From: a bacterium
GTDB lineage: Bacteria > Patescibacteriota > Dojkabacteria > SC72
DNA: 64,000 nucleotides
NCBI GenBank assembly: GCA_021463465.1
Contig: JAJTYH010000003.1
Coordinates: forward strand, 275,549-339,548
Direction of reading: 5' to 3'
Positions 26,617 through 57,925 of the stretch are shown here, in pieces. The first letter of the stretch is position 1. Each line of letters starts with the position of its first letter. The translations under genes were made by a program, and so were the position numbers. Under the pieces are notes generated by a model. That model saw only the letters and a program-made list of their open reading frames with translations. It was not told the DNA's origin and did no database searches.

Positions 26617-28038
26617 ATGAAAACTGTGCATAAAACACAAAAGTGTAGGTATTATGTTGAAGGGATGCACTGTTCTTCATGTGAAATATTGATTGAAAAG
26701 AAACTAAAAAAGCTTGAAAATATTCATGCAGTTAATGCTTCCTTGAGTAGGGGTGAGATTGATATTGAGTTTTCTGGGAAGTCTCCTGATCCTAAGTTAA
26801 TTGATCAGATGTTTCTTGATAATGGTTATACTTTTTCACTTAACCCCAAAAGTGCACCGCCTCTACCTTTTTTGTTCAAATTTGCTGAGGGTAGGCTTAT
26901 TTTCAGTAAAAGTGGACTTTTCAGTGCCTTTAAAGGAAGCTTTTTAATATTGTTGATTCTCATGGGCGTTCTACTTATTGATGGCTCAAAGCTTGGGGGA
27001 TATATTTCAATTTCGAACACGTCTTCACTACCGACTTTTTTTATTTTTGGTTTGATTGCGGGTATTTCTAGCTGTGCCGCATTGGTTGGAGGACTCTTGC
27101 TTTCTGTGTCCCGAAATTGGAGTGATATGTATATTGATCAAGATACATTTTGGAAACGGAGCATTCCTTTTATACTTTTTAATCTAGGAAGGCTAATCGC
27201 ATTTGCATTACTAGGTGGATTACTCGGATATTTGGGTTTAAATCTGGGATTTGGCTTTGTACTAAAGCCAGCTGTCACCGCTGTCGTTATCAGTTTGATT
27301 TCAATTTATATGTTGATTTTAGGAATGGGTCTTCTCGGTTTTGATTTTGTGAAGAAGCTTCGATTAAGCTTACCAAAGAGAATCACCTCAAAGATTGTCA
27401 GTATGGAAGATTTGAAAGGGAAATATGTCCCATTTGTAGTTGGCTTACTAACATTTTTCCTGCCTTGCGGGTTTACACTTAATGCCCAGGCAATTGCATT
27501 AACTTCTGGCTCCGTTTTGGATTCCATGTTAATGATGTTATTCTTTGCTTTAGGAACTTTACCAATACTACTTCTAATTAGTTTTAGCTCTGTAAAGATA
27601 GCCCAAAACCCTAAACTTAATGCAACATTTAATTTTGTTGCAGGTGTAGTCGTTGTTATTTTTGCAGTCTATAATTTTAATGCCCAACTAAATGTACTAG
27701 GCTTACCAAGCTTTTCAGACTTCAAAGTTAAAAGTGTCGGAAATAGTTATACATCTATAATTAATGATTCTACGCAGCTACTAAAAACCACAGCAACTTC
27801 AGAAGGATATTCACCTTCTGAAGTGATTGTAAAAGCTGATGTACCAATCGATTGGGAAATTACAGATACAGGTGCATCAGGTTGTACTAATGCGATTATT
27901 TCAACTCAGCTTCTTGGTGATAAAAGGGTAACGCTGGTGCCAGGGGTAAATAGTGTAAAGTTACCTGCATTGAAGGCGGGAGTTTACAAATACAGTTGTT
28001 GGATGGGAATGTATCAGGGTGTAATTAAAGCGATATAG
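26617..28038 (+). CDS. Heavy-metal-associated (HMA) domain fused to a polytopic membrane domain (TauE/DsbD-like) and a C-terminal Cys/Met-containing beta domain
   Basis: The N-terminal GMHCSSCEILIEKKL shows the HMA MxCxxC motif. About 8 TM helices follow, then a C-terminal domain of about 100 aa with SGCTNAI...YSCWMGMYQGV. Confidence 0.6.
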   Translation: MKTVHKTQKCRYYVEGMHCSSCEILIEKKLKKLENIHAVNASLSRGEIDIEFSGKSPDPKLIDQMFLDNGYTFSLNPKSAPPLPFLFKFAEGRLIFSKSGLFSAFKGSFLILLILMGVLLIDGSKLGGYISISNTSSLPTFFIFGLIAGISSCAALVGGLLLSVSRNWSDMYIDQDTFWKRSIPFILFNLGRLIAFALLGGLLGYLGLNLGFGFVLKPAVTAVVISLISIYMLILGMGLLGFDFVKKLRLSLPKRITSKIVSMEDLKGKYVPFVVGLLTFFLPCGFTLNAQAIALTSGSVLDSMLMMLFFALGTLPILLLISFSSVKIAQNPKLNATFNFVAGVVVVIFAVYNFNAQLNVLGLPSFSDFKVKSVGNSYTSIINDSTQLLKTTATSEGYSPSEVIVKADVPIDWEITDTGASGCTNAIISTQLLGDKRVTLVPGVNSVKLPALKAGVYKYSCWMGMYQGVIKAI

Positions 28039-28923: not shown

Positions 28924-30267
28924 ATGACACCACGTTCTAAGAGATTACTTTTCCTAGCGTTCTCTTTTTTTCTGCTACTGTGGTACTTTTTACCTGAAAT
29001 CACATTAGTAACTAAAAGTATATTCATAAATAGGGCTAATACTTTAAGTGCTGAAATTAAGCCATTTGTGATGAGTCAAGGAGATAGGTATAAGATTGAA
29101 ATTGAAATTCCAGCTAATTTTAATCTTGACATTTCGCAATCTAAAATTGTACTCACAGGGTCGGAATATATTCTAAAAAGTGATATCGAAGATTACGTAT
29201 CTTTTCTGAGTCGTAATATTGTTCTAAACAGAGTGAGTATGGGACAAATGAATAGTCAGTTGGAAGAGGATAGGCTTAAGCTAGCCTTTGAGGATCAAAA
29301 CACTATTCCAAAAGGGTACTCACTGATTGCAGAGGTATACTTAGTTTCTAAGGATGGAAGGGTTGAATATTACCCCCAAGTTGTCAGCTTTGATCCTGAT
29401 TTTATTGAATACTTTGTATCACGGTTTTCGTATTTAATTCAGTACTACATATGGTTTATAGCCATCTTTGGCTTCACGTTAAGTAATAGCGTTTGGTCGA
29501 CAGTGTACGACTCTAAAAGCAAGAAGCCGCTTTCAGGGGCAATTGTCCGAGTTAGTTCAAAGGGCTCATTGTTACATACTGTAGTTACTGGTGTTTCTGG
29601 GGTAATAAACATGAAATTGAAAAAGGGTAAATACAAAATTCATGTAACAAAGGCTGGATATACTTTCCCAAGTAATCTTAAACCCCTTGCAAATGACGGC
29701 TACTACCAGAATCTCTACTACGGGAGTGACTTCCAAATGGGGTCAACTTCAAATATGAAACTAAACATTCCTCTTGATCAATTAGGTGTTCTGCGAGAAG
29801 TAAAGCTGGGAGATAAAGTAAGCTCTTTTGCTGTGTCAGTGGTTAGTGGATTGAGTCCTTTATTGCTTGTTTTTATCACCATCTCGCAAATTATTGTATG
29901 GCCAAATTATATTGATTCTTGGATTTTCGCTTCTGTAAGTGCGTTACTTTTATCATTAAGGTACATTCTAAATGCAGAAGGGAAAGTTTATCCAGGTAAG
30001 GTGGTAGATTTAAATGGTAAACCAGTCTCAAATGTCCAGATTGTAATTTATAATCGTGAATGGAATAAGGTGGTAGATAGGGTGATTAGTAATAGCGAAG
30101 GTGAGTATGAAGCCCTACTACTAAAAGATAAGTACTACGTTAAAATTGCTAATCCTGATTTAGAATTAGTCGGAGTGGGACCTGAGGGCAAACTTAAGGT
30201 GAAAGGCTTGCTTAAAGGTCAGATTCAATATATTAATGACAGACTGGTAGTCAGACCTAAAAGCTAA
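28924..30267 (+). CDS. Membrane protein with two CarboxypepD_reg/Cna-B-like domains flanking TM segments
   Basis: VYDSKSKKPLSGAIVRVSSKGSLLHTVVTGVSGVINMKLKKGKYKIHVTKAGYTF and VVDLNGKPVSNVQIVIYNR...GEYEALLLKDKYYVKIAN are paralogous to the C-terminus of the 23411-25228 product. Confidence 0.5.
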   Translation: MTPRSKRLLFLAFSFFLLLWYFLPEITLVTKSIFINRANTLSAEIKPFVMSQGDRYKIEIEIPANFNLDISQSKIVLTGSEYILKSDIEDYVSFLSRNIVLNRVSMGQMNSQLEEDRLKLAFEDQNTIPKGYSLIAEVYLVSKDGRVEYYPQVVSFDPDFIEYFVSRFSYLIQYYIWFIAIFGFTLSNSVWSTVYDSKSKKPLSGAIVRVSSKGSLLHTVVTGVSGVINMKLKKGKYKIHVTKAGYTFPSNLKPLANDGYYQNLYYGSDFQMGSTSNMKLNIPLDQLGVLREVKLGDKVSSFAVSVVSGLSPLLLVFITISQIIVWPNYIDSWIFASVSALLLSLRYILNAEGKVYPGKVVDLNGKPVSNVQIVIYNREWNKVVDRVISNSEGEYEALLLKDKYYVKIANPDLELVGVGPEGKLKVKGLLKGQIQYINDRLVVRPKS

Positions 30268-32061: not shown

Positions 32062-33615
32062 ATGGACAAGGCAAAAGCTGAAAATATCAATTCAGAAATC
32101 GCTCAAAACGAGAGCCCTTTAGATGTACAATCAATTATTACAGAGGAAGTTGTACGCGCTTACCCTGAGTCAAACGATATTGCTGATTTGACACAATTCT
32201 ACTCAAAAGTAGGTGAGCTTTTGGAAACAGGGGAAACGATTTTTTCAAAGGATCAAGGTAGAGAGTGGAAGCTTATGAGAGCCATTGTTCATAGCGGTAG
32301 AGAAGCGTTAAGAAACGAATCAACTCACTTTCATGTTGAAAATATGCTAAGAGGGGTTTTTACACCTGAAGAAGTAAATAAGTATTTGGACAATGAAATT
32401 AATCAGCTCGTAACGCCACTAGGAATAATTGTGTTTTCTGAAGATGGCCGTATGGAGTTAAAACCTGGTAATTTCAGAGAATCAGTCGCTTCTAATGATG
32501 GAGTGATATTTAGCATTTTACCTGTTGAAGAAGATTTAGCTCCTAATGTGCAACCAGTATCAATGCGGTCACATGTCGGAGGTCAACCCCCTGTGCGGAG
32601 TGTAGGTAAACAAAGAAGGGACATTAGGTCTTCGCCTGCGGCGGTTCTAAGTTCGTTTGCTTTGATGCTGGGTAGTATCACCAGCTTAAATCAAGCTGTG
32701 AATGCAATCCCAGTTCATCAATCAAGGGGTGAAGCTATTAAAAATGTAATAACAGTCAGTCCATTAGAACAAAAGCCAAGTGATACTGTTAAAATTGTTA
32801 GAAGGTACGAGGGTGGTATAAGAAAAGATTCCAAAGAGGAGATAGATTTAGGTGGTATCAATTTTATGAGTCCAGAACCTTTAACGATAAAGGAAAAGCG
32901 TAATTTAGTACAGCTTCAAGCAGATCTAGAGTGCCCAAGGAATGTAGTACCACTTCCCGCAGGTGTAATTGAGGTACCAAATATGCCTCAAGGAACGTCT
33001 GCCTGTGTTTTCCTTAATCCTATTATTGATGAAGAGGGAGTGATTATTGGGCACGAACCTAATAGTGGCCGGCTCATTGTACATATAGACGATGGTAGCT
33101 CCTTAGATGTTTTCAACGTATGCAAGTCGAGAGTCTTAAACGATGAAGATTTAACAGGCCGTTGTGTTAGACAGTTTGAACTTGGTACAAAGGATAAACT
33201 TATTGCAATGCAATACGCTTCTGGTCCAACGAAAATAGTTTTGAAATTTGAAAATCGAATACTGAAACTGAAAGAAGGTGGATTTTTCGGCGAAGATAAA
33301 GGGGTTGATATTGAGGAGCTTGTCGAAGGGATAAGGACAGTTGGTTCATTAACTGATGAGCAACGAAATCAAATTTTATCTACACCAACACCTATCTTAA
33401 CCCCTAAGCCTACAAAAACACCAAAAGTTTTTGCAACTGAAGTAGATGAATTAGACGATCCATCTCTTTCGGCTGAAGAGAGGGCTGAGATAATTAGGAT
33501 TAGGCAAGAAAAAAAAGATAAAGCCAACAGCTTTTGGCTTGGCACTGCAATTACTATCTTTGCACTTCTTGGGGTAGGTACAGCTGTCTATAACTCTCGT
33601 CACCAAGTAGGGTAA
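32062..33615 (+). CDS. Hypothetical protein with a single C-terminal TM anchor (tail-anchored)
   Basis: 517 aa, soluble and charged, ending in FWLGTAITIFALLGVGTAVY. First gene of the surface-protein locus. Confidence 0.5.
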   Translation: MDKAKAENINSEIAQNESPLDVQSIITEEVVRAYPESNDIADLTQFYSKVGELLETGETIFSKDQGREWKLMRAIVHSGREALRNESTHFHVENMLRGVFTPEEVNKYLDNEINQLVTPLGIIVFSEDGRMELKPGNFRESVASNDGVIFSILPVEEDLAPNVQPVSMRSHVGGQPPVRSVGKQRRDIRSSPAAVLSSFALMLGSITSLNQAVNAIPVHQSRGEAIKNVITVSPLEQKPSDTVKIVRRYEGGIRKDSKEEIDLGGINFMSPEPLTIKEKRNLVQLQADLECPRNVVPLPAGVIEVPNMPQGTSACVFLNPIIDEEGVIIGHEPNSGRLIVHIDDGSSLDVFNVCKSRVLNDEDLTGRCVRQFELGTKDKLIAMQYASGPTKIVLKFENRILKLKEGGFFGEDKGVDIEELVEGIRTVGSLTDEQRNQILSTPTPILTPKPTKTPKVFATEVDELDDPSLSAEERAEIIRIRQEKKDKANSFWLGTAITIFALLGVGTAVYNSRHQVG

Positions 33616-33674: not shown

Positions 33675-36600
33675 ATGATGTCGTGGAGAACAAAAAGAAG
33701 GTTAATGCGTCTATGGGTCGCACTGCAATCTACCTTATCAATGAATGGGTATAATCAACGCCGCAAATTTCCCCAGAATCGCTTAGGTATCCAGTCAAAT
33801 ATACGAGTTGTTGGTAAAACTTTAAAGTTTGGTACAGCTATAGTGCTTGCTATCTTGATTAGCACTTTTCTGTTTAGAATTGTTAGCGCCGAAATCCTTT
33901 TAACTAACGAACGTAATCGACTTGAGTTTAAATCAAAAAGTAACAGTTTCCTTTTTGATCAAATTCCTATTGTGGAAATAAAGGATACAAGATACGTATT
34001 AGGAAGTATTAAGAATGTACTAGGTGCAACTACTCAAAACATAAATGAAGGAACAAGCGTAAAACTTATTGATCCAATTGGAAATCAAGTAAGCGGTGCT
34101 ACTATCTTTAATGTTTTGGGAAATAAATATCAGGTCAAAGTACCTGAAAACGTAGATTTTGTCCCAGGTAAATATCGTCTTTTGATTGACTCTCAAGGTA
34201 GGCATGTTGAGAAGGACTTTACCTGGGGAGTTTTAGCCGTCAATACAAATAAAAGTGTTTTCACACTCGGAGAAAATGTGTTTTTGCAATTGGCCTCATT
34301 AGACGAAAAGGGTCATACACTTTGTAACTCCAATCTAAAATTAAAGATAACCTCTCCAAATGGTGGAGTTGAATACACTGAAGTTCGTAAGAGCGGCGAT
34401 TGTTTTGATGATAACGTTACACTTAAGGCAGATTATTATAGTAACTTCGAACCAACCCAGATAGGATCCTATGTTATTCAATTAACAAATTCAGACTTAG
34501 GCTATACTATTTCAGATTCATTTAGAGTGGAAAAGTCTGTACCATTTATTATTGAGCGGTTTGGTCCAACTCGTATCTTTCCTAAGTCAGATTACAAGAT
34601 GAAGATATTCGTAACAGCGAATACTGATTACGTTGGAAAGGTAGAGGAGCTGGTCCCGAGTTCTTTTAAGGTTAATCAAAAAACAATGGAAGGTCTAAAT
34701 GGTAAGTTGTTAACTTGGGATGTTAACCTTAAAAAAGGTGAATCTAAAAGCGTAGAGTATATTTTTGACGCTCCAGATATCTCACCCGAACTTTATGTAA
34801 TCGGTCCGTTGAGAATAGGGGAATTTTCTGAATATAGAACATGGAAAGTTGCTTCGGATATTGTCGCAACATTGACTGATACTTATTTGCAAACAGGTAC
34901 TTGGGTTGCACCAGATGGTGTGACAAGTGCAAGTGTTGAGGTTTGGGGAGGTGGCGGAGCTGGTGGTGGTGCAACAGGGAACCCAGCTGCGGGGGGAGGA
35001 GGTGCTGGTGGTACATACGCTAAAAAAGCTAACTTTTCGGTTACTGCTGGAAATTCGTATACAACAACAGTAGGAGCAGCTAAAACTGCAACAACGACTA
35101 GCAGCGCTTCTACAAATACTGGAAATGTATCTTGGTTTAGTTCGAATGATACTAATGGAGTAGTAGGTGAAGGTGGTCCTGGAGGCGCTCCAGTTTCAGC
35201 TAATAGTTCAAACGGAAACGGTGGTACTGGTAGTACAGCAAATAGCTTTGGTGATGGAGGGTCAGTTTTTGCAGGTGGAAATGCATCAAATGGTAACTTT
35301 ACATCGGGCACACCGGGAGGTGCTGGTGGAGGAGGAGCAGGGAGTAGTGGAGTTGGTGGTAATGCATCCGCAGGAACTGGAGGAACTGGTTCAAGCACTG
35401 GTGGTGGAAATGGAGCCAATGGTGTAGCTAATAGTACTGCCGGCGCGGCAGGTACAACTTACGGTGGAGGTGGGTCTGGTGGAAAGGCTAATAGTACGAC
35501 TGATAGGGCAGGTGGTACAGGTGCAGCGGGAGCAGTTGCTGTTACATATTCAGCAGATTTCCCAAAAGTGGAAGCTACATCTACTGGCCGTGACTCCACT
35601 GATGCGACAAGCCATACGATTACAATGCCATCTGGAATAAATGTTGGGGAACTACTTATTATCGTATTTTCAGTTGATGGCAATCCTACTGTAACAATTG
35701 GCTCTGGTAACTGGACTAAATTGGGTCAGGCAAGCAATGGTACTACAGTTACTCAAGCCATATTTTATAAAGTAGCTGAGGGTAGCGATACGGCAACTGT
35801 GTCTACATCCTCAACCCAAGAAGCCTCTCATATTGTGTATAGGATTAGTGGTGCTGGTGATACAATTAGCGGTACATCTGCAAATGGTAGTAGTACAAAC
35901 TCAAATCCTCCAAACCACAATCCTGGTACCACCAATAATTACTTATGGATTGCTACTCGAGGTGGTGATGCTCAGGTTGTAGCTTCAGTTCCACCAACGA
36001 ATTTCGCCAATTATAAAAGTATTGGAGCACAAAATTCGACAGGTGCATCATCAAATACCTCAACTAGAGTACATCAGGCATCGAGTTTAGACCCAGGTAC
36101 GTGGACAAGTACGACTGAACAGTGGGTAAGTTATACGATATCCGTTCCGCCTCCAGTAACCTTAAGCGGAGCAGTTTACACAGATGAAATAGGGACAAAT
36201 ATTGGAGCAAATAAAACCGTCGATATACGGATTAATGGTACAGGATCGTATACCGATGAAACAGACAATAGCGGAGCCTGGACTATAAATGTGCCATCAA
36301 TAGCATCAGGGGCTGTAATTACTGCATATCTTGATGACGAAACAGAAGAAGGTACCATCGTTATGGTCTCTGATGGTACATCAAAAAGTGATATCCATAT
36401 AGTACAAAATAGGGTTTTTGTTAGGCATGATACTGGATCTTCCATTACACCTGACAATCTATTTAGTGGAGATGATGGAGATGATGATGTTAAGTACTCT
36501 GTTTCAGCTTCTTCGAATGGCAATTTAACAGTCGACTCTGGATTTGAGTTACATGTTTGGCCTGGTGATACTTTTGATGCAAGTGGTGGTAGCATTACTC

Positions 36601-39600
36601 TTCAGGGTGGAGCAAATCTGCATGTTGACGATACTGCTTCGGTTTACTTAGACACGAGTACAAACACTATTGCTGGTGATGCACTGATTGATGGAAGTGC
36701 TACATTGCGAATCAATGCAAATACGGATATCAATGGAGGTGACATAACAACTAGTGGTACTAATGCTAATGTTACAACCACGTCAGGTTCGCCCACTGTT
36801 ACGATTTCAGGAACAGGGAGTATTGGTGGTGGAACGACTCCGTCTTTTACATTTCATAACTTGAATACATCCGGCACAGGTACGACAACCCTCTCAAATG
36901 CTGTTACGGCAAATAACGATGTTACAGTTGGGAGTGGTACAACGCTTAGAATTAATTCAAATTTGAATGTTAATGGTGGAGATTTAGTAAATACAACTAC
37001 CGGAATTATTGATTACACTTCTGGAACGCCAACAGTCACTCTAACTGGCGCAGGAACTCTTGGTGGTGGGTCTGGTGGAATATCTATTTACAATTTAACT
37101 ACGAATGGGAGTAGTAACAGTACAACGCTTGCAACAAATAATATTGTAATCTCAAATGCTTTAAACGTTGGTACTTCTCATACTTTTGCTATGAGCACAA
37201 ATTCTCTAACAATAGGTTCTACTTCGATAAGTGATTCTGGAGATATTACAATGGCGACTGGGAGTTCTACCTCTCAATCAGCTTCAGGTACAGTAACAAT
37301 TTTAGGGTCTAGTAATGCCGCTGATTGGGCTGGTCCTGGGATATTCACCGCATACAACCTTACAATTGGTAACGGTAGTAATACATTATCTGTGGACAAT
37401 GAAACTGCTGATTTATCAATTGATGTTAATAATGATTTTAATATAACGGCAAATGCCACATTTAGTGCATCATCAAGTTCTTCTTTTACAGTTGGAAATA
37501 GTTATAGTAACTCAGGTACATTTACCGCAAATAGTGGTTTAGTAACGATGGACGCAGGAGATAGTGGGAACACACTCTCAGGATCTATGACCGGCAGTAG
37601 TACTTTCTATAATCTCAGGTTTAATAATAGTGCTGGATCCTGGACGTTTTCAAACAATGCAGATGTAGGTAATGACTTTACAATTACCGATGCAACGGCA
37701 GTAAATGCCCCTTCATCTTTAAGTGTTGCCAGAAATTTTACTGGTAGTAGTGCATTCACCCCGGGCAGTGGAACGGTAACACTTAGTGGCGCAGGTGGTA
37801 CCACACAAACATTGTCGGGCAATACGACTTTTTATAATCTAACTGCTAACGCCAGTTCCTCAAGAATAATTCAATTTACAGCAAGCTCAACAAACACGAT
37901 TAACAATAACTTAACACTAACAGGAACAAATTGTGATGCACTTATGCTTTTAAGGTCTACATCTAAGGGTACTGTTTGGAACATTGATGATAACACTGGT
38001 GGGACAACAACTGTAAGTAATGTTGATGTTCAAGACTCAACTGCAACAGACCAAGCAGTGACTGCGACATCGTCAAATAATTCTGGAAATAATGGCAATT
38101 GGACAATTGCGGCTTCGGCTTGTGAAGGGGGGAGCACCTCAATCACTCCTGTTTCGTATGGATTTCAGAGGAAAACTTTCTTTGATGATACAAATGATGT
38201 TTATTGGATGCTTTACCATGATGGTGATGAGATTGAGGTCAGATACTCAAGTGATACAGGAACAACATGGAATCTTCCTTCAACTTCAAGTAGTGCACAT
38301 CTTGCATATGATACAAGTGACTTTTCAGTATGGAATAAAACAATTAGCTCTACAGAGTATATATTTTTAGCACTAAAAGACGGCTTTGATATAAAAGTAT
38401 TGGTAGGTACTCTTTCCGCCTCAAATGTCACGTGGGATAATGATATCGATACCGTATTTGACGGTACTAGTAGTGGTGATACATTTTCATATCCGTACGT
38501 ATCGTTAGACTCTTCAAACTATGTTTGGGTGGGCGCAAGGTATTATGATGGGACCAATTACGTTTATCGTACATCTGATAGCAACGCTATCGGTAGTACC
38601 GACTTGTCATCGGTAGGTTGGAATCCATTCAAGCAGGTTATCAATAATCAAACAAATTCTAATGTCTATGGGAATATTGTTCCGCTTGCTTCTCAAGCTA
38701 TGTATTTAACAGTTGCAGTTGGAACCGCACTTCGTGGGTGTATTTGGGATGACAGTGCAAATGATTGGGTCGATTCAAATGATGTTAGTTGTACTACAGA
38801 ATCTGAGGAGTACTACTCAACACTAAATAATGGACTTATTTCATATTGGAGGATGGATGAGACCAGCTGGAATGGGACTAGTAATGAAGTTGTTGATTCA
38901 TCTGGTAATGGATTACATGGAGTTAGAGTAGGTGATGCTACGACAGAAAATAGTGGATTTTTAAGGTCAGGAACATTTGATGGATCTGGTGACTATATTG
39001 ACGCAGGCTCGCCAGCATCTCTTGATGATTTACCTAACAGTGATTTTACAGTCTCATTTTGGCATAAGTATAGTGAGACAGGTTCAGCAAATTTCCCAGT
39101 TTTTGTCGGTAAACGTAATTACTTGGGAAGTTATGGGTGGAATATAAGCACAGAAAAAACAAATAAGTATGTTAAATTAAACGTTTTGTATCCGGGTGGT
39201 ACTGATGCTCAATTTACAACCGATGACGATGCTTTTGCCGATGGTGTATGGTCACAGGTTACAGTCACATGGGATGCTTCAACGAAAACAGGTGAAATCT
39301 TTATCAATGGAATACAACCAAGTATGTATAACGAGGTTTCAGGCAGCGGGACCTACACCTCAGATGCATCTGAAATACTAAGGGTAGGACATGATAATGT
39401 GGGATCCCCATATAAAGGGAATTTAGATGAATTCAGAATATATGATAGGGTTTTGAGTACAAGCGAAATTTCGCAACTATATCAATATTATCCAGGCCCA
39501 ATTAATATTGATAATTCTTCTGACTTTGGTTCAATGCCCGGAGCGGGGAGGCAGATAATCAGGGCTGGTGATGGTGATATATACGCTTTTGTAAATGATG

Positions 39601-42600
39601 GTGGGAATTGTGAGATGTGGAAATCCACTAATAGTTTTACATGGACGCAGCAACAGCCAGGAACAACAATTACATGCAGTAACAGTAATGCAATCTCTAC
39701 TTCAATTGACGGAAATGCAGATATACATGTAGCCTATTTTGATGGTACTTCTTCATTAAAGTATCGACTTTATGATACTGCGACAGATAACTGGGACGGT
39801 GGTGTTGGGGAAGAGAATATCGTTACGGGTGACACTTATAGTTCTGTAGTAGTGTCAATTGACAGTAATAATATCCCTCATATTGCAGTTAGAACTACAA
39901 CAGGGGCCATAATCGGATACAACAATAGAATCGGTGGTACATGGAATGGTTCTTTAACTACGGTTGAGTCTACTTCAGTCACAGATTATTTAGATTTAAC
40001 TATAAATGAAAATAACTATCCTGCAATCTCATATATTACGAGCACATCGCTTGTTGCAAAAGAAGGGAATGCAAACGATGCTTCGTCATTTAACAGCTCA
40101 GGGACTATCGATTCAACTGTGAATACAACAGCTGGTCAAGCTGGCATTTCAATTGCGGTAGACAGTGCAAATGGCGATGAATGGGTAGCGTATATTGACT
40201 CGGGTGGGTCAGTAGCTCTCGCAAAACATAGCGGAGGAACATGGGGATCGGGATGGAGCACAGTTACAACTAAATCAGATATAGGCTCAGAACCGAGCAT
40301 AGCTCTTGCGTGGTCAAACGGGGTATATGTGTTCTATCAGGATGACAGCACTGATCAGAAAATTGTGTACGATTTCTACAATAGTAGTGGGAGTAGTCCT
40401 GCCTGGGTGGGGGAAAAAGTCCTTCTAACCCCAAGTAGTGGAGTTGATTATAAAGATGTAAAGGTGAGGTGGTCTTATTTAAATAACCCTTCTTATTCAA
40501 ACTATTCTTTTGAGTATTTAATTAGTGATAATACGGACTTATATTTCGGACAACTTTCTCTCCCAGATTGGTTAACTAACTGGAGTAAAAGGGTCCCGAT
40601 TGTTATCTCCAACTCAAACATTGATGCTGATTTGACTGCTTTTCCATTAAACTTGACCGTAACTTCAACTTCAGGGACCGCTGACGATGATATGACCCTA
40701 CTTTTTGATTCGCTTGGTGCAAATAGCAAAAAGATTGCAATTACAAAATCTGATGGTACTACAGAGTTATACGCTGAAGTACAACGCTGGGACACTACTA
40801 ATGAAATTGGACAACTGTGGGTTTCAAAAGAAGATTTCGTGCTTTCTGGCTCAACGGATACCACCTTGTACTTATATTATGATAGTAATCACGCTGATAA
40901 TACAAACTATGTTGGGGATACAGGTTCCACAATCGCCGGTAAGGTGTGGGAACCTGGATATAAAGTTGTGGCGCATTTGGATGAAGCAGATGATACATCG
41001 AGGGTCGATGCATCAGGAAATGGGAATACAATGTCAGAAAGTGCTTCTGATACTGTAACCCAATATACCTCTGGGACACGAATTGGTGCGGATTTTGAGA
41101 GGGGTGATACAGAGTTCCTTGAAGTATCTGATAACTCAAGTCTTGAAATGAGTAATTTTACCTTTACTGCCTGGCTTAATGTTGAAAGCACTCAGAGCTC
41201 AGGAGGTGCGTATCAGGCTATTTTCACAAGGGGTGATGGAGGTAATTGGGCATACGGTTGGGCGACTGAATCGGATTCTATCGGAACGTTAATAGATGCT
41301 GATGGGTTTGCGGGGGGAGGAGCTTTGCCAGTGAGCGCTTCTTCTACATTTAATACAGGTGAATGGAATCTATTTCATGTCACTTATGATGGTTCGAATA
41401 TACGGCTGTATAAAAACGGTGTAGAGCTAACTTCTGGAGATTATCCATACGCTACAACTATTTCTATAAATCAAAATAGTACATCAAGTCTAAGATTAGG
41501 AAATTGGCAATCGCAATCTGGTTACTTTGATGGGATTATGGATGAAGTTATGCTTAATAGTGGAGCTAAATCTTCCGCATGGCTAAAGACAGATTATCAC
41601 TCAATGACTGACAATCTTGCGAACTGGGGGACTTCTGAAAGTGTTGCTTTTAGCACCTCCTCCCAAGATACAATTGATACTATCCCAGCTAATATAGATG
41701 ATAATTTTTCAGCAACAGTCGATTCTAGTAATAATGTCCACATTGCATATGTAGACGATGAAAGTACCGATCAAATTTCACATCGAAAGTGGACTAACTC
41801 TACTCAGACATGGGGTAGTGCAACACTTGTTCCAAGTGGAGCAAGTAATACTCATACGAATATAAGTATTGCAATAAACACATCGGCGGCAGATCTGAAT
41901 GATTTGTATGTTTCCTGGATTGATTCTTCAAATAACCACATATATTACCGACAGTATGATAGTTCGGCCACAAGTTGGTTAACTGTTCAGGATTGGAAAA
42001 CAACCGGTACTAATGTCTATCCGACTCTAAACTTCAGTGGTAGTGGAAGAGTATTTGCCCTTTGGAATCAAGGTACTTCTTCTCCTACTACTATTGATTG
42101 GGGTTCAATTTTAGCCCCGTCAGGAGGGAGTGCACCAACAGTTACAAGTGTAAGCTTAAATGGAGGGTCAACGATAACATTAACTGAAGGAACAACAACA
42201 AATATTTCAGTTGTCGGGACAGTTACTGACTTAGATGGTCATGCAAATATATCTACTGCAACAGCAAAGATTTATAGATCAGGTGTATCAGGTGCTCAAT
42301 CATGTTCAAATAGTGATAATAATTGTTACACAGTTGCTAGCTGTTCACTTAGCTCATGTGCTGGAAATACTTGTACAGCAACATGCACTGCACCATTAGC
42401 ATTTCATGCTGATGCAACTGATACTGGGAGTACATATGCATCAGAGTACTGGAGAGGTTGGATTGAAGCTACAGATGATGATTCAAATACAGGTTCTGGG
42501 TTTAGTAGCGTAGGGTCACCTGACCTTGCAAGTACTGCTGCTATGGATATAAGCTCTTCACTTGCTTTTGGCACGCTTTTAGCTGGTGATGACACCGGTG

Positions 42601-42932
42601 CATCTCCTCAGAATACTACTGTCACAAATACTGGAAATACAACACTTGATTTTGAAGTTTCAGGAGATGATTTATGTACTAACTATCCGACCTGTAGTGG
42701 GTCGCAAATAGGTGTTGGGTATCAGGAGTATAAGATTACAACTTTTACATACGGTGCAGGGACTGGATTAACTACTTCCCCAGTGACAGTTGATTTGAAT
42801 CTGAACAAATCTACTGCCGTCCCGTCTAATTCAACATCCTCCTTTTACTGGGGCATAGGAATTCCATCTCCAAAAGAGACTGGGGCGTATACAGGTGCTA
42901 ATACAGTAACGGCGTTAAATGGTGGTTCTTAG
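33675..42932 (+). CDS. Giant (3085 aa) multi-domain cell-surface protein with an N-terminal anchor, a Gly-rich module, beta-helix-like repeats, a BNR motif, 2 LamG-like domains, a DUF2341-like segment and a Cys-patterned C-terminal module
   Basis: A single uninterrupted ORF with an N-terminal TM or signal anchor. The Gly-rich block VEVWGGGGAGGG...GGGGAGGTY is at about 34900-35560. Degenerate repeats of about 65 aa (…TVT(I/L)(S/T)G.G.(I/L)GGG…FYNLT…) run from about 36780 to 38000. An Asp-box SSDTGTTW is near 38250. LamG-like jelly rolls lie at about 38835-39495 and 40960-41600. The DUF2341-like segment WLTNWSKRVPIVISNS...LYLYYDS is at 40560-40910. Confidence 0.8.
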   Translation: MMSWRTKRRLMRLWVALQSTLSMNGYNQRRKFPQNRLGIQSNIRVVGKTLKFGTAIVLAILISTFLFRIVSAEILLTNERNRLEFKSKSNSFLFDQIPIVEIKDTRYVLGSIKNVLGATTQNINEGTSVKLIDPIGNQVSGATIFNVLGNKYQVKVPENVDFVPGKYRLLIDSQGRHVEKDFTWGVLAVNTNKSVFTLGENVFLQLASLDEKGHTLCNSNLKLKITSPNGGVEYTEVRKSGDCFDDNVTLKADYYSNFEPTQIGSYVIQLTNSDLGYTISDSFRVEKSVPFIIERFGPTRIFPKSDYKMKIFVTANTDYVGKVEELVPSSFKVNQKTMEGLNGKLLTWDVNLKKGESKSVEYIFDAPDISPELYVIGPLRIGEFSEYRTWKVASDIVATLTDTYLQTGTWVAPDGVTSASVEVWGGGGAGGGATGNPAAGGGGAGGTYAKKANFSVTAGNSYTTTVGAAKTATTTSSASTNTGNVSWFSSNDTNGVVGEGGPGGAPVSANSSNGNGGTGSTANSFGDGGSVFAGGNASNGNFTSGTPGGAGGGGAGSSGVGGNASAGTGGTGSSTGGGNGANGVANSTAGAAGTTYGGGGSGGKANSTTDRAGGTGAAGAVAVTYSADFPKVEATSTGRDSTDATSHTITMPSGINVGELLIIVFSVDGNPTVTIGSGNWTKLGQASNGTTVTQAIFYKVAEGSDTATVSTSSTQEASHIVYRISGAGDTISGTSANGSSTNSNPPNHNPGTTNNYLWIATRGGDAQVVASVPPTNFANYKSIGAQNSTGASSNTSTRVHQASSLDPGTWTSTTEQWVSYTISVPPPVTLSGAVYTDEIGTNIGANKTVDIRINGTGSYTDETDNSGAWTINVPSIASGAVITAYLDDETEEGTIVMVSDGTSKSDIHIVQNRVFVRHDTGSSITPDNLFSGDDGDDDVKYSVSASSNGNLTVDSGFELHVWPGDTFDASGGSITLQGGANLHVDDTASVYLDTSTNTIAGDALIDGSATLRINANTDINGGDITTSGTNANVTTTSGSPTVTISGTGSIGGGTTPSFTFHNLNTSGTGTTTLSNAVTANNDVTVGSGTTLRINSNLNVNGGDLVNTTTGIIDYTSGTPTVTLTGAGTLGGGSGGISIYNLTTNGSSNSTTLATNNIVISNALNVGTSHTFAMSTNSLTIGSTSISDSGDITMATGSSTSQSASGTVTILGSSNAADWAGPGIFTAYNLTIGNGSNTLSVDNETADLSIDVNNDFNITANATFSASSSSSFTVGNSYSNSGTFTANSGLVTMDAGDSGNTLSGSMTGSSTFYNLRFNNSAGSWTFSNNADVGNDFTITDATAVNAPSSLSVARNFTGSSAFTPGSGTVTLSGAGGTTQTLSGNTTFYNLTANASSSRIIQFTASSTNTINNNLTLTGTNCDALMLLRSTSKGTVWNIDDNTGGTTTVSNVDVQDSTATDQAVTATSSNNSGNNGNWTIAASACEGGSTSITPVSYGFQRKTFFDDTNDVYWMLYHDGDEIEVRYSSDTGTTWNLPSTSSSAHLAYDTSDFSVWNKTISSTEYIFLALKDGFDIKVLVGTLSASNVTWDNDIDTVFDGTSSGDTFSYPYVSLDSSNYVWVGARYYDGTNYVYRTSDSNAIGSTDLSSVGWNPFKQVINNQTNSNVYGNIVPLASQAMYLTVAVGTALRGCIWDDSANDWVDSNDVSCTTESEEYYSTLNNGLISYWRMDETSWNGTSNEVVDSSGNGLHGVRVGDATTENSGFLRSGTFDGSGDYIDAGSPASLDDLPNSDFTVSFWHKYSETGSANFPVFVGKRNYLGSYGWNISTEKTNKYVKLNVLYPGGTDAQFTTDDDAFADGVWSQVTVTWDASTKTGEIFINGIQPSMYNEVSGSGTYTSDASEILRVGHDNVGSPYKGNLDEFRIYDRVLSTSEISQLYQYYPGPINIDNSSDFGSMPGAGRQIIRAGDGDIYAFVNDGGNCEMWKSTNSFTWTQQQPGTTITCSNSNAISTSIDGNADIHVAYFDGTSSLKYRLYDTATDNWDGGVGEENIVTGDTYSSVVVSIDSNNIPHIAVRTTTGAIIGYNNRIGGTWNGSLTTVESTSVTDYLDLTINENNYPAISYITSTSLVAKEGNANDASSFNSSGTIDSTVNTTAGQAGISIAVDSANGDEWVAYIDSGGSVALAKHSGGTWGSGWSTVTTKSDIGSEPSIALAWSNGVYVFYQDDSTDQKIVYDFYNSSGSSPAWVGEKVLLTPSSGVDYKDVKVRWSYLNNPSYSNYSFEYLISDNTDLYFGQLSLPDWLTNWSKRVPIVISNSNIDADLTAFPLNLTVTSTSGTADDDMTLLFDSLGANSKKIAITKSDGTTELYAEVQRWDTTNEIGQLWVSKEDFVLSGSTDTTLYLYYDSNHADNTNYVGDTGSTIAGKVWEPGYKVVAHLDEADDTSRVDASGNGNTMSESASDTVTQYTSGTRIGADFERGDTEFLEVSDNSSLEMSNFTFTAWLNVESTQSSGGAYQAIFTRGDGGNWAYGWATESDSIGTLIDADGFAGGGALPVSASSTFNTGEWNLFHVTYDGSNIRLYKNGVELTSGDYPYATTISINQNSTSSLRLGNWQSQSGYFDGIMDEVMLNSGAKSSAWLKTDYHSMTDNLANWGTSESVAFSTSSQDTIDTIPANIDDNFSATVDSSNNVHIAYVDDESTDQISHRKWTNSTQTWGSATLVPSGASNTHTNISIAINTSAADLNDLYVSWIDSSNNHIYYRQYDSSATSWLTVQDWKTTGTNVYPTLNFSGSGRVFALWNQGTSSPTTIDWGSILAPSGGSAPTVTSVSLNGGSTITLTEGTTTNISVVGTVTDLDGHANISTATAKIYRSGVSGAQSCSNSDNNCYTVASCSLSSCAGNTCTATCTAPLAFHADATDTGSTYASEYWRGWIEATDDDSNTGSGFSSVGSPDLASTAAMDISSSLAFGTLLAGDDTGASPQNTTVTNTGNTTLDFEVSGDDLCTNYPTCSGSQIGVGYQEYKITTFTYGAGTGLTTSPVTVDLNLNKSTAVPSNSTSSFYWGIGIPSPKETGAYTGANTVTALNGGS

Positions 42933-42986
42933 TTGACTTTGTGAGAATTTAATTAGTATATTGTAGGGATTAAATAGGAATAATTA

Positions 42987-44678
42987 ATGAAGCAGTTTCG
43001 TGTGGCAACAACCAAGTTTCTCCTTGTTATTGGGCTAACTGCTTTACTTATTCCAAACCTCTTCATTATATGGAATGTTATTGCAGATAGTGTTACGACA
43101 TCAGTTACTGTTGGGAATACGTCTCCTAGTTTTACGGTAGGACCAGCTGAAAATCCCGAGAGTTCGAATACCACCCCTACAAACGTTGGTGCTAATACGA
43201 CTTTCCAGGCTACTGCGACTGATAGCAATTCGGAAAATTATTACTTGATTTTATGCTCTACAAACTCAGTTTCTGCAACCAATGGCGGTGCTCCGACTTG
43301 TGGTGCGACTCAGTTTTGTGTTAGTTCCTCAACCGCAAGCGGAAGCCAGGCTTCATGCAATCGTTCTGCACAGGCTGGCGATGCTGAAAATGTTGCCTGG
43401 TACGCATTTGTTTGTGACGGAAATGCTTCAGCAGCAGCGTGTTCAAGCTCCAGTCAAGGGAGTGGTGCTACAGGATCACCCTTTGCTGTTAACCATGTTC
43501 CAGGCTTCTCTTCGGTAAGTAACGATGGGCCTAAAAATCCTGGCCAAACCGTTACATGGTCAACTACAGCTTCAGACACTGACTCAGCAGGTTCTGCTGA
43601 TACAGTTAAGCTAATTGTTTGTAAGACAACTGGACTTTCGGGAGATGCCTGCGATGGAGGTGGAAGTGATACATGGTGCTCAAGTTCTTTTGTTTCGTCA
43701 GATCCAACATGTGGATATGCCGTTCCCACGCCAACTGCTGATGGGGCAAATAATGCATATGTTTATGTAGTTGATAATCATAATTTTGGAGCTTCCTCAG
43801 GTAACCAAGGTAGTAATAGCTCCTTTACTGTAAACAATATTGCTCCAGTTGTATCTGGGGTAACATTTAATGGTGGTAGTGCCATAACTTTAACTGAAGG
43901 TACTACTACAAATATAACCATTGGCGCCACAATTACTGATAATAATAGCTGTACTGGTGGTGAAATTGCTACAACATATGGTTATGCATATAGGTCTGGG
44001 GTTGGATTTTCTGGGTGTGACACTTCTGGAGAATCTAATAATAACCATTGTTATGCGGAGGTCACATGTACTGTAACTGGTGGTACCTGTTCTGGCGCTT
44101 CGGATGCATCAGCTGATTATACCTGCACAGTAGCAATGCAGCACTATGCTGACCCAACGGATGTTGCGACCATATACCCTACGGAGAATTGGTTGGCATC
44201 GTTTAGGGCAATTGATGATGATAGTGCTGCTCATACAGTTGAAGTCTCGTCAGGCGTTGAAATGAACTCACTTACTGCTCTGAATGTCACTGGTTCAGTT
44301 AACTACGGAACATTAGATGTAAACCAAAGCAATGACCCACTTGATAAGATTACGACAGTTACACCTACAGGAAATGTTGGACTCGATGAAGAACTCTCGG
44401 GCGCAAATATGTGTACGGACTATCCAACATGTTCAGGTGGAATAATTGCTGTAGGTCAACAAAAGTATGCACTAGCAACATCAACTGCCTATGCAAGCGG
44501 TACAGCCTTGACAACTTCACCCGTAGAGCAAGAGTTAAATGTTCCGAAAGCTACATCCGGTTCCCCCACAACAAAAAATACATGGTGGGGTATATTAATC
44601 CCGCTTGGAACTACTCCGGGATCATATAGTGGAAGCAATACAGTTACTGCAGTCAAAGGTGAAACGGGAGGTTGGTGA
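42987..44678 (+). CDS. Secreted Cys-rich protein whose C-terminal roughly 280 aa are paralogous to the C-terminal module of the giant protein
   Basis: Signal peptide MKQFRVATTKFLLVIGLTALLIP. Residues from about 285 (nt 43838-44675) align at roughly 40-45% identity by eye with giant-protein residues at nt 42110-42929. Both include LNGGS.ITLTEGTTTNI and C(T/M)(N/D)YPTCSG. Confidence 0.7.
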   Translation: MKQFRVATTKFLLVIGLTALLIPNLFIIWNVIADSVTTSVTVGNTSPSFTVGPAENPESSNTTPTNVGANTTFQATATDSNSENYYLILCSTNSVSATNGGAPTCGATQFCVSSSTASGSQASCNRSAQAGDAENVAWYAFVCDGNASAAACSSSSQGSGATGSPFAVNHVPGFSSVSNDGPKNPGQTVTWSTTASDTDSAGSADTVKLIVCKTTGLSGDACDGGGSDTWCSSSFVSSDPTCGYAVPTPTADGANNAYVYVVDNHNFGASSGNQGSNSSFTVNNIAPVVSGVTFNGGSAITLTEGTTTNITIGATITDNNSCTGGEIATTYGYAYRSGVGFSGCDTSGESNNNHCYAEVTCTVTGGTCSGASDASADYTCTVAMQHYADPTDVATIYPTENWLASFRAIDDDSAAHTVEVSSGVEMNSLTALNVTGSVNYGTLDVNQSNDPLDKITTVTPTGNVGLDEELSGANMCTDYPTCSGGIIAVGQQKYALATSTAYASGTALTTSPVEQELNVPKATSGSPTTKNTWWGILIPLGTTPGSYSGSNTVTAVKGETGGW

Positions 44679-44698: not shown

Positions 44699-46105
44699 AT
44701 GATGTTTAGTATATTTATAGAAAGAATGAAAACTTTAGGAAAAACGATTACGACAATTGCATGCTTCTTATTAATGATGTCCCCGTCATTAGCGGGTTTT
44801 GGTGTCTCACCTACTAATATTTATAATGAATACTTAAAGCCCGGAGCACATTTTGAGAAGGTGGTGACACTTTCAAGATCTGATCCGTTTGAAGATTTAG
44901 ATATTGTTATCGAACCCAGTTTAGGAGAGATTAACTCTTGGTTTAGATTTGATCCAGGTCTTACCTTTGTTTTCCCTAAAGGCGAGAGTAGGAAAACTTT
45001 TAAAATAATCGTTGATGTACCACAAAGTGCTTCATATCGGGGATATGAAGGAGTTATTCGTGTAAAAGCTCTAGCTCGTGGTCAAGCTGTACAGGGGGTT
45101 TCAATTGTCAAGGGTGCAAGGTTAGATGTAGATTTGGTAACTACAGAGGTTTCAATCAGTGAATTGCAGATTAAATCACTAAAAATGCTTGATGCCAATG
45201 AGGGAGACCCTTTGAAGTTGGAAATTCTTGCAGAAAATCTTGGAAACGTTGCGGTATCACCTGATGCGAAGGTTGCAATAAAAAATCTACAGATGGAAGA
45301 TTTGGAGGAGCATGTTGACAATGATCTTGAATTTGTGCAACCAAACGAGAGTAAAACTTTATATGCTGAATTTAAATCATCACTTCCTCAAGGCGAGTAC
45401 TTTGTGGATGCATTTGTTCTAGTAGATGGTTCAGTGGTAAGGAAAGAAAGATTAGTTTTTAGAATTAATGCACCAGGAGAGAAAAGTGCAGATACTAGTG
45501 GTGGGTTAAGTACTGCTTTTGCAAACGGGATTTCTTTGTTGAGAGACAATGCTTCAATGATTGGGGTTTGCCTGCTATTTGCTATTGTTGCGTACTTCTT
45601 GATGAGCAAGCTGTGGAAGCAGGAGAGTATGGAAGATAAAAAGAATGAGTTATGGGCACCACTACTTGGCGTCAGAGCTAGTTCAAGAATTATTGTTTCC
45701 ATCCTAATTGGAATTTTATCAGCCGGAATATTCTGGTGGTTTAGTTCACACCCAATTCAGTTTGAAAAAGAGAGTAAAAAGAGCGACATTTCAGTACAGC
45801 CTAGTGGTGGAATCCCTTTGGAAGTTGTTGTATCAGAAGGTACAGATGTTAAAGGTGTGAAAGAGAAGATTGATAAATCTGATCCACTTGTGGTAAGTGA
45901 TAGGGATAAGGACGGAAAGGCGAAATATCCGATTTACGAAAGCCCAGATCTTAACTCAAATATTGTCTACTATGCTCTAGAAGATGAAAAGTTGGATGTA
46001 GTGGAGGAAAATGCTGATTGGTATAAGGTTGAAGTCGGGGATGGCGATATGGGGTGGCTTGAGAAATCAAAAGTAAAATCTAGTGTATCTCAAGAGATTC
46101 AATAG
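44699..46105 (+). CDS. Secreted or membrane protein with an N-terminal beta domain, two TM helices and a C-terminal SH3b-like domain
   Basis: The signal peptide is followed by TM helices near residues 280 and 330. The C-terminal DWYKVEVGDGDMGWLEKSKV is a bacterial SH3-like motif. Confidence 0.45.
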   Translation: MMFSIFIERMKTLGKTITTIACFLLMMSPSLAGFGVSPTNIYNEYLKPGAHFEKVVTLSRSDPFEDLDIVIEPSLGEINSWFRFDPGLTFVFPKGESRKTFKIIVDVPQSASYRGYEGVIRVKALARGQAVQGVSIVKGARLDVDLVTTEVSISELQIKSLKMLDANEGDPLKLEILAENLGNVAVSPDAKVAIKNLQMEDLEEHVDNDLEFVQPNESKTLYAEFKSSLPQGEYFVDAFVLVDGSVVRKERLVFRINAPGEKSADTSGGLSTAFANGISLLRDNASMIGVCLLFAIVAYFLMSKLWKQESMEDKKNELWAPLLGVRASSRIIVSILIGILSAGIFWWFSSHPIQFEKESKKSDISVQPSGGIPLEVVVSEGTDVKGVKEKIDKSDPLVVSDRDKDGKAKYPIYESPDLNSNIVYYALEDEKLDVVEENADWYKVEVGDGDMGWLEKSKVKSSVSQEIQ

Positions 46106-56797: not shown

Positions 56798-57538
56798 ATG
56801 AAAATCTACACACTAATCTTCGATAAGAAATTCGAACTCCAAACAGAATCAGGATTCTTAAATGAGAATCTCATCCAAAAAATTGCTGATAAGCTTGAAG
56901 AAGGAAAATTAGAAGGCAAACTACGTTATAAAGGTGACCACCTTTACTGGCATGTGGTTAAACACAAAAGTAATTATGTGGTTTCTGTTGTTGATGTTAC
57001 GGAGTTTATACAATACAAGAGAGAGGCAATGCTTGACCAACTCACAGGGCTATACACACGACATGCGTATTGGAGGTTGTTGGGCAATGAGGTTGATGAA
57101 GCAGTGCGTCTTAAGCACCTCTTAGGGGTTGTGTTCATCGATATTGACAACCTAAAATCAATTAACGCTGAAAGAGGATATCTTGGTGGTGACTTTGTAA
57201 TCCAGGGAATTGCACACCTTGTATTAAAAGTTATACGAAAATACGACAATGCTGTTAGACTTGGTGGCGATGAATTTTTGGTTTTGATTAATTTGAAAGA
57301 CGAGCATCGAACTTTGTTTGAAAAAACTGTCATTCGTATTTACAAAAAGATTCACGAAAAAGCAAAAGAGTTCTCTTCGGCCACTGTGGTTGGAACTGTC
57401 CTTGAACCCAGCGTACTAGAGAAACTTCATAAGGCCAGAAATCTCAAAGAGGAATGGGAGAAAGTTATTGAAAGTTTAGATAATCAGGTTATAAGTGCTA
57501 AACGAAGTGGAAAAGATAATTATCGAATAATTCCCTAG
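56798..57538 (+). CDS. GGDEF-domain diguanylate cyclase with a short N-terminal domain of unknown function
   Basis: An intact GGDEF active site RLGGDEFLVLI and an upstream DxDxLK-like VFIDIDNLKSINAERGY. Confidence 0.8.
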   Translation: MKIYTLIFDKKFELQTESGFLNENLIQKIADKLEEGKLEGKLRYKGDHLYWHVVKHKSNYVVSVVDVTEFIQYKREAMLDQLTGLYTRHAYWRLLGNEVDEAVRLKHLLGVVFIDIDNLKSINAERGYLGGDFVIQGIAHLVLKVIRKYDNAVRLGGDEFLVLINLKDEHRTLFEKTVIRIYKKIHEKAKEFSSATVVGTVLEPSVLEKLHKARNLKEEWEKVIESLDNQVISAKRSGKDNYRIIP

Positions 57539-57858
57539 CCTAAATACTTATTTATTGTTTCAATGTAGTTTTGCTTAGGTTGTAAACCAATCATTTGGTC
57601 CACTAATTTCCCATCCTTAAAAAACATAATCGTAGGAATACTCATGACTTGATACTGCATTGATGTATTAGGGTTTTGATCTACATTAAGTTTGTAAACC
57701 TTAATTTTCCCTTCTAATTCTTGAGCTATTTCATCAATCAACGGACTTAGCACAACGCATGGAGTACACCATGCTGCCCAGAAATCAACAAGCACAAGTC
57801 CTTTGCTCTCAAGGATTTCTTTTTTAAAATCGTTATCTGTTACTGCTAAATCTGACAT
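57535..57858 (-). CDS. trxA: Thioredoxin
   Basis: 107-aa thioredoxin fold with the active site WAAWCTPCV (CTPC rather than the canonical CGPC). Confidence 0.85.
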   Translation of the reverse strand: MSDLAVTDNDFKKEILESKGLVLVDFWAAWCTPCVVLSPLIDEIAQELEGKIKVYKLNVDQNPNTSMQYQVMSIPTIMFFKDGKLVDQMIGLQPKQNYIETINKYLG

Positions 57859-57925
57859 AATATGTGGTAAAATCTTACACTTATACTATATTTTAAACGT
57901 TAAACATCCTTTTACGCAAGTGTGT

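Follow-up and report, generated by a model that had tools for sequence, protein, structure and literature searches.

A shared C-terminal module and its WxLIP-like genomic partner at a surface protein locus of Patescibacteria

WxL clusters (Csc) are the closest described counterpart of the locus presented here. A cluster is defined by at least one WxLIP together with at least two WxL proteins, the WxLIP consisting of two immunoglobulin (Ig)-like domains and a transmembrane (TM) helix (PMC10599100: Hassan, Chaudhuri, Williamson). WxL domains bind peptidoglycan non-covalently, and AlphaFold2 predicts that a hairpin strand of DUF916 enters a gap in the WxL sandwich; reports of the system are almost confined to Lactobacillales and Bacillales (PMC10599100). 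The DNA examined here is a window of 64,000 nt (the whole stretch analysed, from contig JAJTYH010000003.1) belonging to a member of the Dojkabacteria within the Patescibacteria. Three open reading frames (ORFs) on the same strand (+, as for all features below) encode a giant secreted protein of 3085 amino acids (aa), a small secreted protein of 563 aa and a membrane protein of 468 aa, the product of 44699–46105, labelled p468 in this analysis. The two secreted proteins end in a common module, which may dock surface proteins of Patescibacteria onto the cell and retain them there, as a C-terminal unit specific to this family and built of two disulfide-stabilized beta-sandwich domains; this reading is given a probability of about 0.5.

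A C-terminal module shared by two secreted proteins

Residues ~2820–3083 of the giant protein (nt 42132–42923) and residues 286–558 of the small protein share 119/278 identities (43 %) in BLASTP with composition-based statistics (E 4e-53), in a single collinear alignment with 19 gap positions. A preliminary description of this DNA had reported collinear C-terminal modules of about 270 and 280 aa with roughly 40–45 % identity by eye, an estimate that the alignment bears out. Every start, Cys and W-G-I motif quoted there was found in both proteins. The module opens with SLNGGSTITLTEGTTTNI in the giant and TFNGGSAITLTEGTTTNI in the small protein, and it closes with YWGIGIP...GAYTGANTVTAL and WWGILIP...GSYSGSNTVTAV, respectively. 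The Cys motif needs a minor amendment: given as beginning C(T/M), it actually reads (L/M)-C-T-(N/D)-Y-P-T-C-S-G, with the L or M standing before the first Cys.

The giant-type copy of the module spans 42117–42929 (hidden Markov model (HMM) E 3e-98), with domain A at ~42132–42515 and domain B at ~42516–42929. It has no GExxxW tail, and its domain B carries an optional Cys loop, CTNYPTCSG, at 42675–42701. In the small protein, domain A (43818–44255) is a predicted beta-sandwich with four core Cys and a YADPTD motif. Domain B (44256–44675), likewise a predicted beta-sandwich, contains TPTGN, the Cys loop CTDYPTCSG (44412–44438), WWGILIP, GSYSGSNTVTAV and the tail KGETGGW.

Related loci were gathered from GTDB genomes with an alignment of 12 sequences as query, and conservation of the module was scored across 85 non-identical copies from them. 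The four Cys of domain A are conserved in 92–95 % of the copies, so the resemblance is not the mere low-complexity similarity that the preliminary description had considered as an alternative. Likewise, W-G-[ILMV]-x-[ILVA]-P and G-x-Y-x-G each occur in 75/85 copies and [ST]GN in 83/85. Not every copy has the CT(N/D)YPTCSG loop: its two Cys occur in 62–69 % of copies, and the relatives P0009, P0012, P0019 and P0037 are without it.

Structure prediction, proposed as a check on the module, yielded a confident model. The AlphaFold2 model, built on a 52-sequence alignment, has a predicted local distance difference test score (pLDDT) of 95.6 and a predicted template modelling score (pTM) of 0.87, and is all-beta, with two beta-sandwich domains at roughly residues 1–140 and 145–281. 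Pfam and NCBIfam hold no family matching the module in either window protein or in 52 family members, and the PKD, Big and fn3 models gave no Pfam match on it. A viral fold library returned only generic tandem-Ig matches for the module, and sequence-profile searches of the PDB with the module and partner profiles returned nothing significant. A phmmer search started from a genuine small WxL sequence also matched no PDB chain.

The module belongs to a large family. In a profile search covering 1.84 billion cluster representatives (50 % identity), 2204 match at E<=1e-3, and 928 still do so at E<=1e-30. Proteins with the module are nearly all from Patescibacteria. The best 150 matches lie in proteins of 207–4157 aa, and ~146 of these matches end at the last residues of the protein; further proteins ending in this module, for which a genome-wide search had been suggested, are thus numerous. 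The few source names attached to module proteins are ‘hypothetical’ and ‘LamG domain-containing’, and a relative of the giant with 90 % identity is named only ‘LamG domain-containing protein’. Within the fetched loci, the module lies no more than 15 residues from the C-terminus in 85/89 copies. Given this terminal bias and the lack of a Pfam match, a plain Ig-like or PKD repeat without terminal specificity, also raised beforehand, is most unlikely to be what these proteins carry. The module is a discrete, shared and almost strictly C-terminal unit of secreted proteins.

The copies placed otherwise are found in four proteins. Two are internal, in the giants of locus L002 (4729–9936), where a propeller-like region follows the module, and of locus L004 (2–4432). 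Two are N-terminal, in a 656 aa Kelch protein of L004 (4546–6480) and a 649 aa protein of L041 (7995–9941).

The 46 related loci from GTDB genomes are nearly all from metagenome-assembled genomes (MAGs) of the candidate phyla radiation (CPR). Dojkabacteria/WS6 dominate, and Shapiro-, Doudna-, Nealson- and Uhrbacteria, WWE3 and Paceibacterota are also represented; the nearest relatives of the window locus are WS6 genomes. Several MAG records bearing the cluster are titled Pseudomonadales, Gammaproteobacteria or Caldisericales (L008, L017, L034, L035, L037, L039, L052). Mislabelling of the bins, or titles at odds with the placement in GTDB, is the probable cause.

The giant protein (33675–42932, from the ORF list and its translation) is composed of an N-terminal signal anchor, an MG2-like N-terminal region, a Gly-rich segment, two LamG domains (Pfam Laminin_G_3, E 3e-34), propeller-like repeats and the C-terminal module. 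Its hydrophobic signal anchor or signal peptide, VGKTLKFGTAIVLAILISTFLFRIVSA, was read from the sequence at 33810–33890. Among giants of different genomes, an N-terminal region of ~300 aa and the module are conserved, and the middles are mosaic in content and length. The module is the best-conserved segment of all, at 56–57 % identity, while the middles do not align. This pattern fits proteins made of constant ends and a variable payload. The Gly-rich segment (TWVAPDGVTSASVEVWGGGGAGGG..., window ~34935–35600, giant aa ~421–640) has no Pfam match, and a segment of this kind also stands at the N-terminus of other module proteins (TWQAPAGVTQVTVEVWGAGGGTG; L026 12168–14138, L028 288–2258).

The small protein (42987–44678) consists of a signal peptide, two Cys-containing repeats and the module, an architecture shared by 42 relatives. 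Its signal peptide or TM segment was recognized in the sequence at 43017–43085. The two homologous repeats of ~120 aa occupy 43128–43817, R1 reaching to ~43490 and R2 starting at 43491. They are clearly alike (hhalign 98.2 %, E 3e-14). R1 is weakly similar to domain A of the module (64 %, E 6.5e-5), R2 barely so (7.6 %), and neither resembles domain B. The preliminary description had seen a further diverged copy of the module in this N-terminal half. What remains of that is the weak likeness of the repeats to domain A; a third copy of the whole module was rejected.

The mature N-terminus of the small protein is TTSVTVGNTSP (43095–43127), and T[ST]V[TI]VGNxxP is present in most small-type relatives. 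The segment TTSVTVGNxxP, seen also in homologs from loci L008–L051, resembles a final strand followed by an NxxP interdomain linker, as in SSFTVNNIAP at 43818–43847, although there is no domain in front of it. Another subunit might receive it as a donor strand, or it may be nothing more than strand A.

A WxLIP-like membrane protein encoded beside the module

Synteny was surveyed by translating every ORF in 50 non-redundant loci and searching the products with HMMs of the module, the N-terminal half of the small protein, the N-terminal region of the giant and the 468 aa protein. A homolog of the 468 aa protein is present in 41/50 loci, and in 40/50 a protein ending in the module is encoded directly 5′ of it. 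At least two module proteins and at least one partner occur together in 33/50 loci. In ~20 of the 50, a module-ending protein of 1000–3000 aa lies directly upstream of a small one, as in the window. The arrangement varies at some loci. At L006 (8810–14882, equal to L007), a variant cluster encodes two short module proteins and two WxLIP-like proteins, followed at short distance by an S26 signal peptidase and an S8 peptidase, and at L004 and L005 proteins with cohesin domains come after the partner gene.

The partner in the window, p468 (44699–46105), begins with a signal peptide recognized in the sequence (to 44794), followed by the mature N-terminus GFGVSP (44795–44812). A signal peptide and then an invariant mature N-terminus, A-GFG(V/I)SP, are found in all homologs. 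A conserved hairpin, GVIRVKA...GVSIVKGARLDV, lies at 45050–45130 (aa 118–144), and two TM helices were read from the sequence at 45557–45616 (TM1) and 45689–45748 (TM2). The C-terminal SH3b domain (~45923–46075), placed by SH3 Pfam matches, is the only domain that Pfam identifies in the family, and ‘SH3 domain-containing’ is the source name there. The TM helices are separated by a basic loop; by the positive-inside rule, the SH3b domain after TM2 should therefore be extracellular. Shorter homologs of ~300–340 aa, with one TM helix and no SH3 domain, are encoded at L002, L004 and L049.

The AlphaFold2 model of the p468 ectodomain (pLDDT 87.7) comprises two beta-sandwiches, at mature residues 1–116 and 124–225. 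A hairpin of lower confidence at ~91–110 (mature numbering) falls on the stretch that varies least within the family, G86...R109. In Foldseek searches of the PDB, structures of EfmWxLIP1 occupy ranks 2–4 with E-values of 1.4e-10 to 8e-10, a probability of 1.0 and ~260 aligned columns. These are 9i25_C (‘WxLIP from Enterococcus faecium locus A bound to long WxL’) and 9i1y (‘WxLIP from E. faecium’), and the WxLIP chains are homologous to an annotated DUF916+DUF3324 protein (E 3.5e-42). PapD-like chaperones (FimC, CfaA, DraB) were also matched, at E 1e-8 to 1e-7, below WxLIP.

For a comparison at the sequence level, genuine WxL clusters with annotation were taken from Enterococcus, Listeria, Lactiplantibacillus, Bacillus and Lactococcus plasmids. 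When 45 partner homologs were compared as a profile with six WxLIPs, hhalign gave 97.6 % (E 4e-12) for the entire protein. With the ectodomain by itself it gave 84.5 % (E 7e-6), and the alignment runs collinearly through both domains. The architecture is also that of WxLIP: a signal peptide, two tandem Ig-like beta-sandwiches and a C-terminal TM segment. By fold and by profile, p468 is a remote homolog of WxLIP, one that the corresponding Pfam models and sequence motif do not pick up. The invariant stretch of the partner family aligns in hhalign with the long polar loop of WxLIP, and this loop may correspond to the hairpin whose strand is predicted to enter the WxL sandwich (PMC10599100).

Docking model, module subtypes and rival explanations

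Anchoring or docking is the best-supported function of the module because its conserved genomic partner is a WxLIP-like, membrane-anchored protein. A surface-anchoring role was among those put forward in the preliminary description, and it is the one that the partner favours. A physical interaction of the module with p468, strand complementation between the two and a role in display or adhesion are what we infer from this arrangement. The giant and the small protein, encoded with p468 in what is read as a conserved operon, would first be exported by Sec. By analogy with WxL clusters, their modules would then bind the ectodomain of p468, where the conserved beta-hairpin of lower confidence (aa 118–144) may complete a sheet in the module; that this hairpin is both invariant and of lower pLDDT is circumstantial evidence for such an insertion. 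The TM helices and extracellular SH3b domain of p468 would hold the complex on the cell, with the variable LamG and propeller-like payload of the giant facing outwards.

Several observations weigh against this model and against its analogy with WxL clusters. Synteny alone does not prove that the module and the partner bind each other, the genes of some giants with the module have no partner gene near them (L032), and 4/89 module copies are internal or N-terminal. At E<=0.1, the DUF916 (PF06030) and DUF3324 (PF11797) Pfam models miss p468 and 35 homologs. The partner family is also without the NQIDKxxxYFDLK motif of WxLIP, with an alignment gap opposite ENQIDK, and carries an invariant GFG(V/I)SP...L-x-PG in its place. 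As regards the module itself, the 85 copies, taken whole or as domain A or domain B, gave hhalign values of only 0.4–0.5 % (E 0.12–0.15) against 11 WxL domains, under conditions that detect the relationship between partner and WxLIP. There is no Pfam WxL (PF13731) match for the module, and its 50 best fold matches in the PDB do not include the WxL chain of 9i25.

Two subtypes of the module can be distinguished, one at the end of giant, variable multi-domain proteins and the other at the end of proteins of ~300–600 aa. The giant's module is nearest to those of giants in other genomes (66 % identity at L010, 61 % at L008), and the small protein's module is nearest to those of other small proteins (67–69 %). 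The mean identity between giant-type and small-type modules is 38.2 % within a locus and 37.7 % between loci. The subtypes also differ in their ends. A KGExxxW-COOH tail is present in 56/74 copies in proteins of <1000 aa and absent in 15/17 giant copies; in the window, the small-type tail KGETGGW (44655–44675) ends in a terminal Trp, and giant modules stop a few residues earlier. Equal identity within and between loci argues for old paralogous subtypes, an old duplication kept in two roles, instead of a recently exchanged cassette. A recent swap of the kind first proposed for this pair, with a cassette moving between tandem genes, was rejected on the same identities and on the grouping of nearest relatives by protein type.

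Other explanations of the module take its fold or its position as their starting point. In Foldseek searches of the PDB, the module has only weak tandem-Ig matches (E 6e-5 to 4e-3, TM-scores 0.25–0.46), the top ones being donor-strand-complemented chaperone-usher pilins (the CfaB-CfaB fusion 3f84, FimH, CsuA/B, CsuE and SafD). Such matches, those of the partner to FimC, CfaA and DraB, and the conserved orphan strand and linker at the mature N-terminus of small-type proteins would suit a pilin-like polymerizing unit, whose Ig-like domains are joined into a fibre by donor-strand complementation, with the small protein as shaft, the giant as tip and p468 as a membrane-tethered PapD-like chaperone or base. 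However, fold matches this weak are typical of generic tandem Ig folds, WxLIP outscores the chaperones as a match for the partner, the module monomer is modelled confidently throughout with no obviously missing strand, and no usher-like gene was seen among the window genes scanned; a pilin-like fibre is rather improbable. Direct binding of the module to the cell wall or to a surface glycopolymer, as a carbohydrate-binding anchor with p468 merely co-regulated, is also rather improbable. The glycosyltransferase genes in the same window and the peptidoglycan binding of WxL domains (PMC10599100) are consistent with it, as is a sub-threshold similarity of the last ~45 aa to the GH123 N-terminal beta-sandwich (GH123_N_2) in 11/52 members, with a best E of 2e-4. 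The module matches no known carbohydrate-binding family, though, and the adjacency of the partner in 40/50 loci is tighter than mere co-regulation would give. Wall binding of this kind would, in addition, be compatible with the docking model.

The preliminary description had also likened the module to the polymorphic tips of adhesins or toxins and to C-terminal sorting domains. A receptor-binding or toxin-like tip, exchanged between genes to vary host specificity, would agree with the terminal position on giant adhesin-like proteins and with the variation of the Cys-stabilized loops (the optional loop and alternative Cys pairs). It is very improbable given that the module is the most conserved segment of the giants, that its subtypes follow protein type and not locus, and that both proteins of a locus carry it; constant ends with mosaic middles likewise argue against a polymorphic tip. 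An ordinary tandem Ig-like spacer shares the all-beta, Ig-like fold class, but would hardly have the strong terminal specificity and invariant motifs of a distinct family without Pfam match. A classical sorting signal such as LPXTG, the C-terminal domain (CTD) of the type IX secretion system (T9SS) or PEP-CTERM is difficult to reconcile with a folded two-domain unit of 280 aa that is internal or N-terminal in four copies and has no hydrophobic or basic tail, the proteins ending in KGETGGW or LNGGS. Neither a sortase nor a related enzyme was found among the window genes scanned, and spacer and sorting signal are both regarded as extremely unlikely.

Cultivated Patescibacteria are obligate episymbionts and, to our knowledge, the means by which they hold host cells, beyond type IV pili, are largely unknown. 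It is possible, and suggested here tentatively, that they own a surface-display system, widespread and so far undescribed, that is evolutionarily akin to the Firmicute WxL/WxLIP complex and in which a WxLIP-like protein captures the module in place of a WxL domain. Such a system would tether small scaffold proteins and giant mosaic adhesin-like proteins and may mediate attachment of episymbiont to host, and the logic of WxL-type clusters would then extend well beyond Lactobacillales and Bacillales. The module tags thousands of otherwise unannotated proteins, many of them 1000–4000 aa long, and its link to the partner gives a concrete, testable model for the retention of giant CPR surface proteins. 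Module and partner together provide a handle for finding candidate adhesin loci in CPR genomes, and both families could become new domain models. No description of the module or the cluster was found in literature on Patescibacteria with WxL or DUF916 or on giant CPR surface proteins; the finding is that of a WxL-cluster-like surface system in Patescibacteria, built on a large unannotated C-terminal module family.

Surrounding genes and comparison with known systems

The window is otherwise ordinary chromosome, with SecA, glycosyltransferases, RecO, TsaD and three tRNAs. Directly upstream of the giant, a 517 aa ORF (32062–33615) has no Pfam or NCBIfam match; it has no homolog in 52 related loci and was therefore left out of the system. 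A few genes before those of the Cys-rich secreted proteins, a single ORF (26617–28038) joins HMA, DsbD_2 (a thiol-disulfide transmembrane region) and cupredoxin-like domains, and might relate to extracytoplasmic redox or Cys chemistry. Two more proteins with Ig-like or prealbumin-like domains (Big_1, fn3, CarboxypepD_reg, SpaA) are encoded at 23411–25228 and 28924–30267, without the module. Further downstream, a protein with a GGDEF (diguanylate cyclase) domain is encoded at 56798–57538, in a CPR genome that seems to be reduced. A 407 aa ORF (57803–59026) is a fusion of Sua5/YrdC and TsaE. It runs into the beginning of TsaD (59013–60083), the two forming a compact gene pair for t6A synthesis.

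Among known systems, the sorting signals LPXTG, T9SS CTD and PEP-CTERM stand, like the module, at the C-terminus of secreted surface proteins, which are often giant. The module differs in being much larger, in having two domains, in its occasional internal placement and in lacking a motif with hydrophobic tail and a cognate enzyme nearby. The likeness to chaperone-usher pili consists of the weak pilin fold matches of the module and the matches of the partner to two-domain chaperones; complementation of beta-strands between Ig-like folds would be common to both. In contrast to these pili, the module system has no usher-like gene among the window genes scanned, no outer membrane and no sequence similarity, and its partner is membrane-anchored. 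The GH123 N-terminal beta-sandwich (PF22680; PDB 8k2h, 5l7v) resembles the last ~45 residues of the module, the W-G-I...G-x-Y-x-G strands, and a Foldseek match extends over ~158 columns. The window copy reaches at best 14.5 bits against a Pfam cut-off of 27, however, and the resemblance covers only part of domain B, with no glycosidase domain present.

WxL clusters differ from the module cluster in several respects. The WxL domain has 160–190 aa and two Trp-x-Leu motifs, whereas the module has ~280 aa, two Cys-rich beta-sandwiches and one W-G-[ILMV]. WxLIP has a single TM helix, and the window partner has a second one and an SH3b domain. The CPR module cluster showed neither a small LPXTG protein nor a sortase, and the hosts are Patescibacteria instead of Lactobacillales and Bacillales. 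The likeness lies in the arrangement. In both, a large and a small secreted protein with a common C-terminal domain are encoded beside a WxLIP-type protein, so that the module takes the same position in its proteins and in its cluster as the WxL domain does. The window order of giant, small protein and partner is the Listeria order of long WxL, short WxL and WxLIP, and the 33/50 loci with several module proteins and a partner mirror the published definition of a WxL cluster (PMC10599100). The module may be either an extremely diverged WxL domain or a replacement of it, and the best reading of the comparison is a new family that probably fills the functional slot of the WxL domain.

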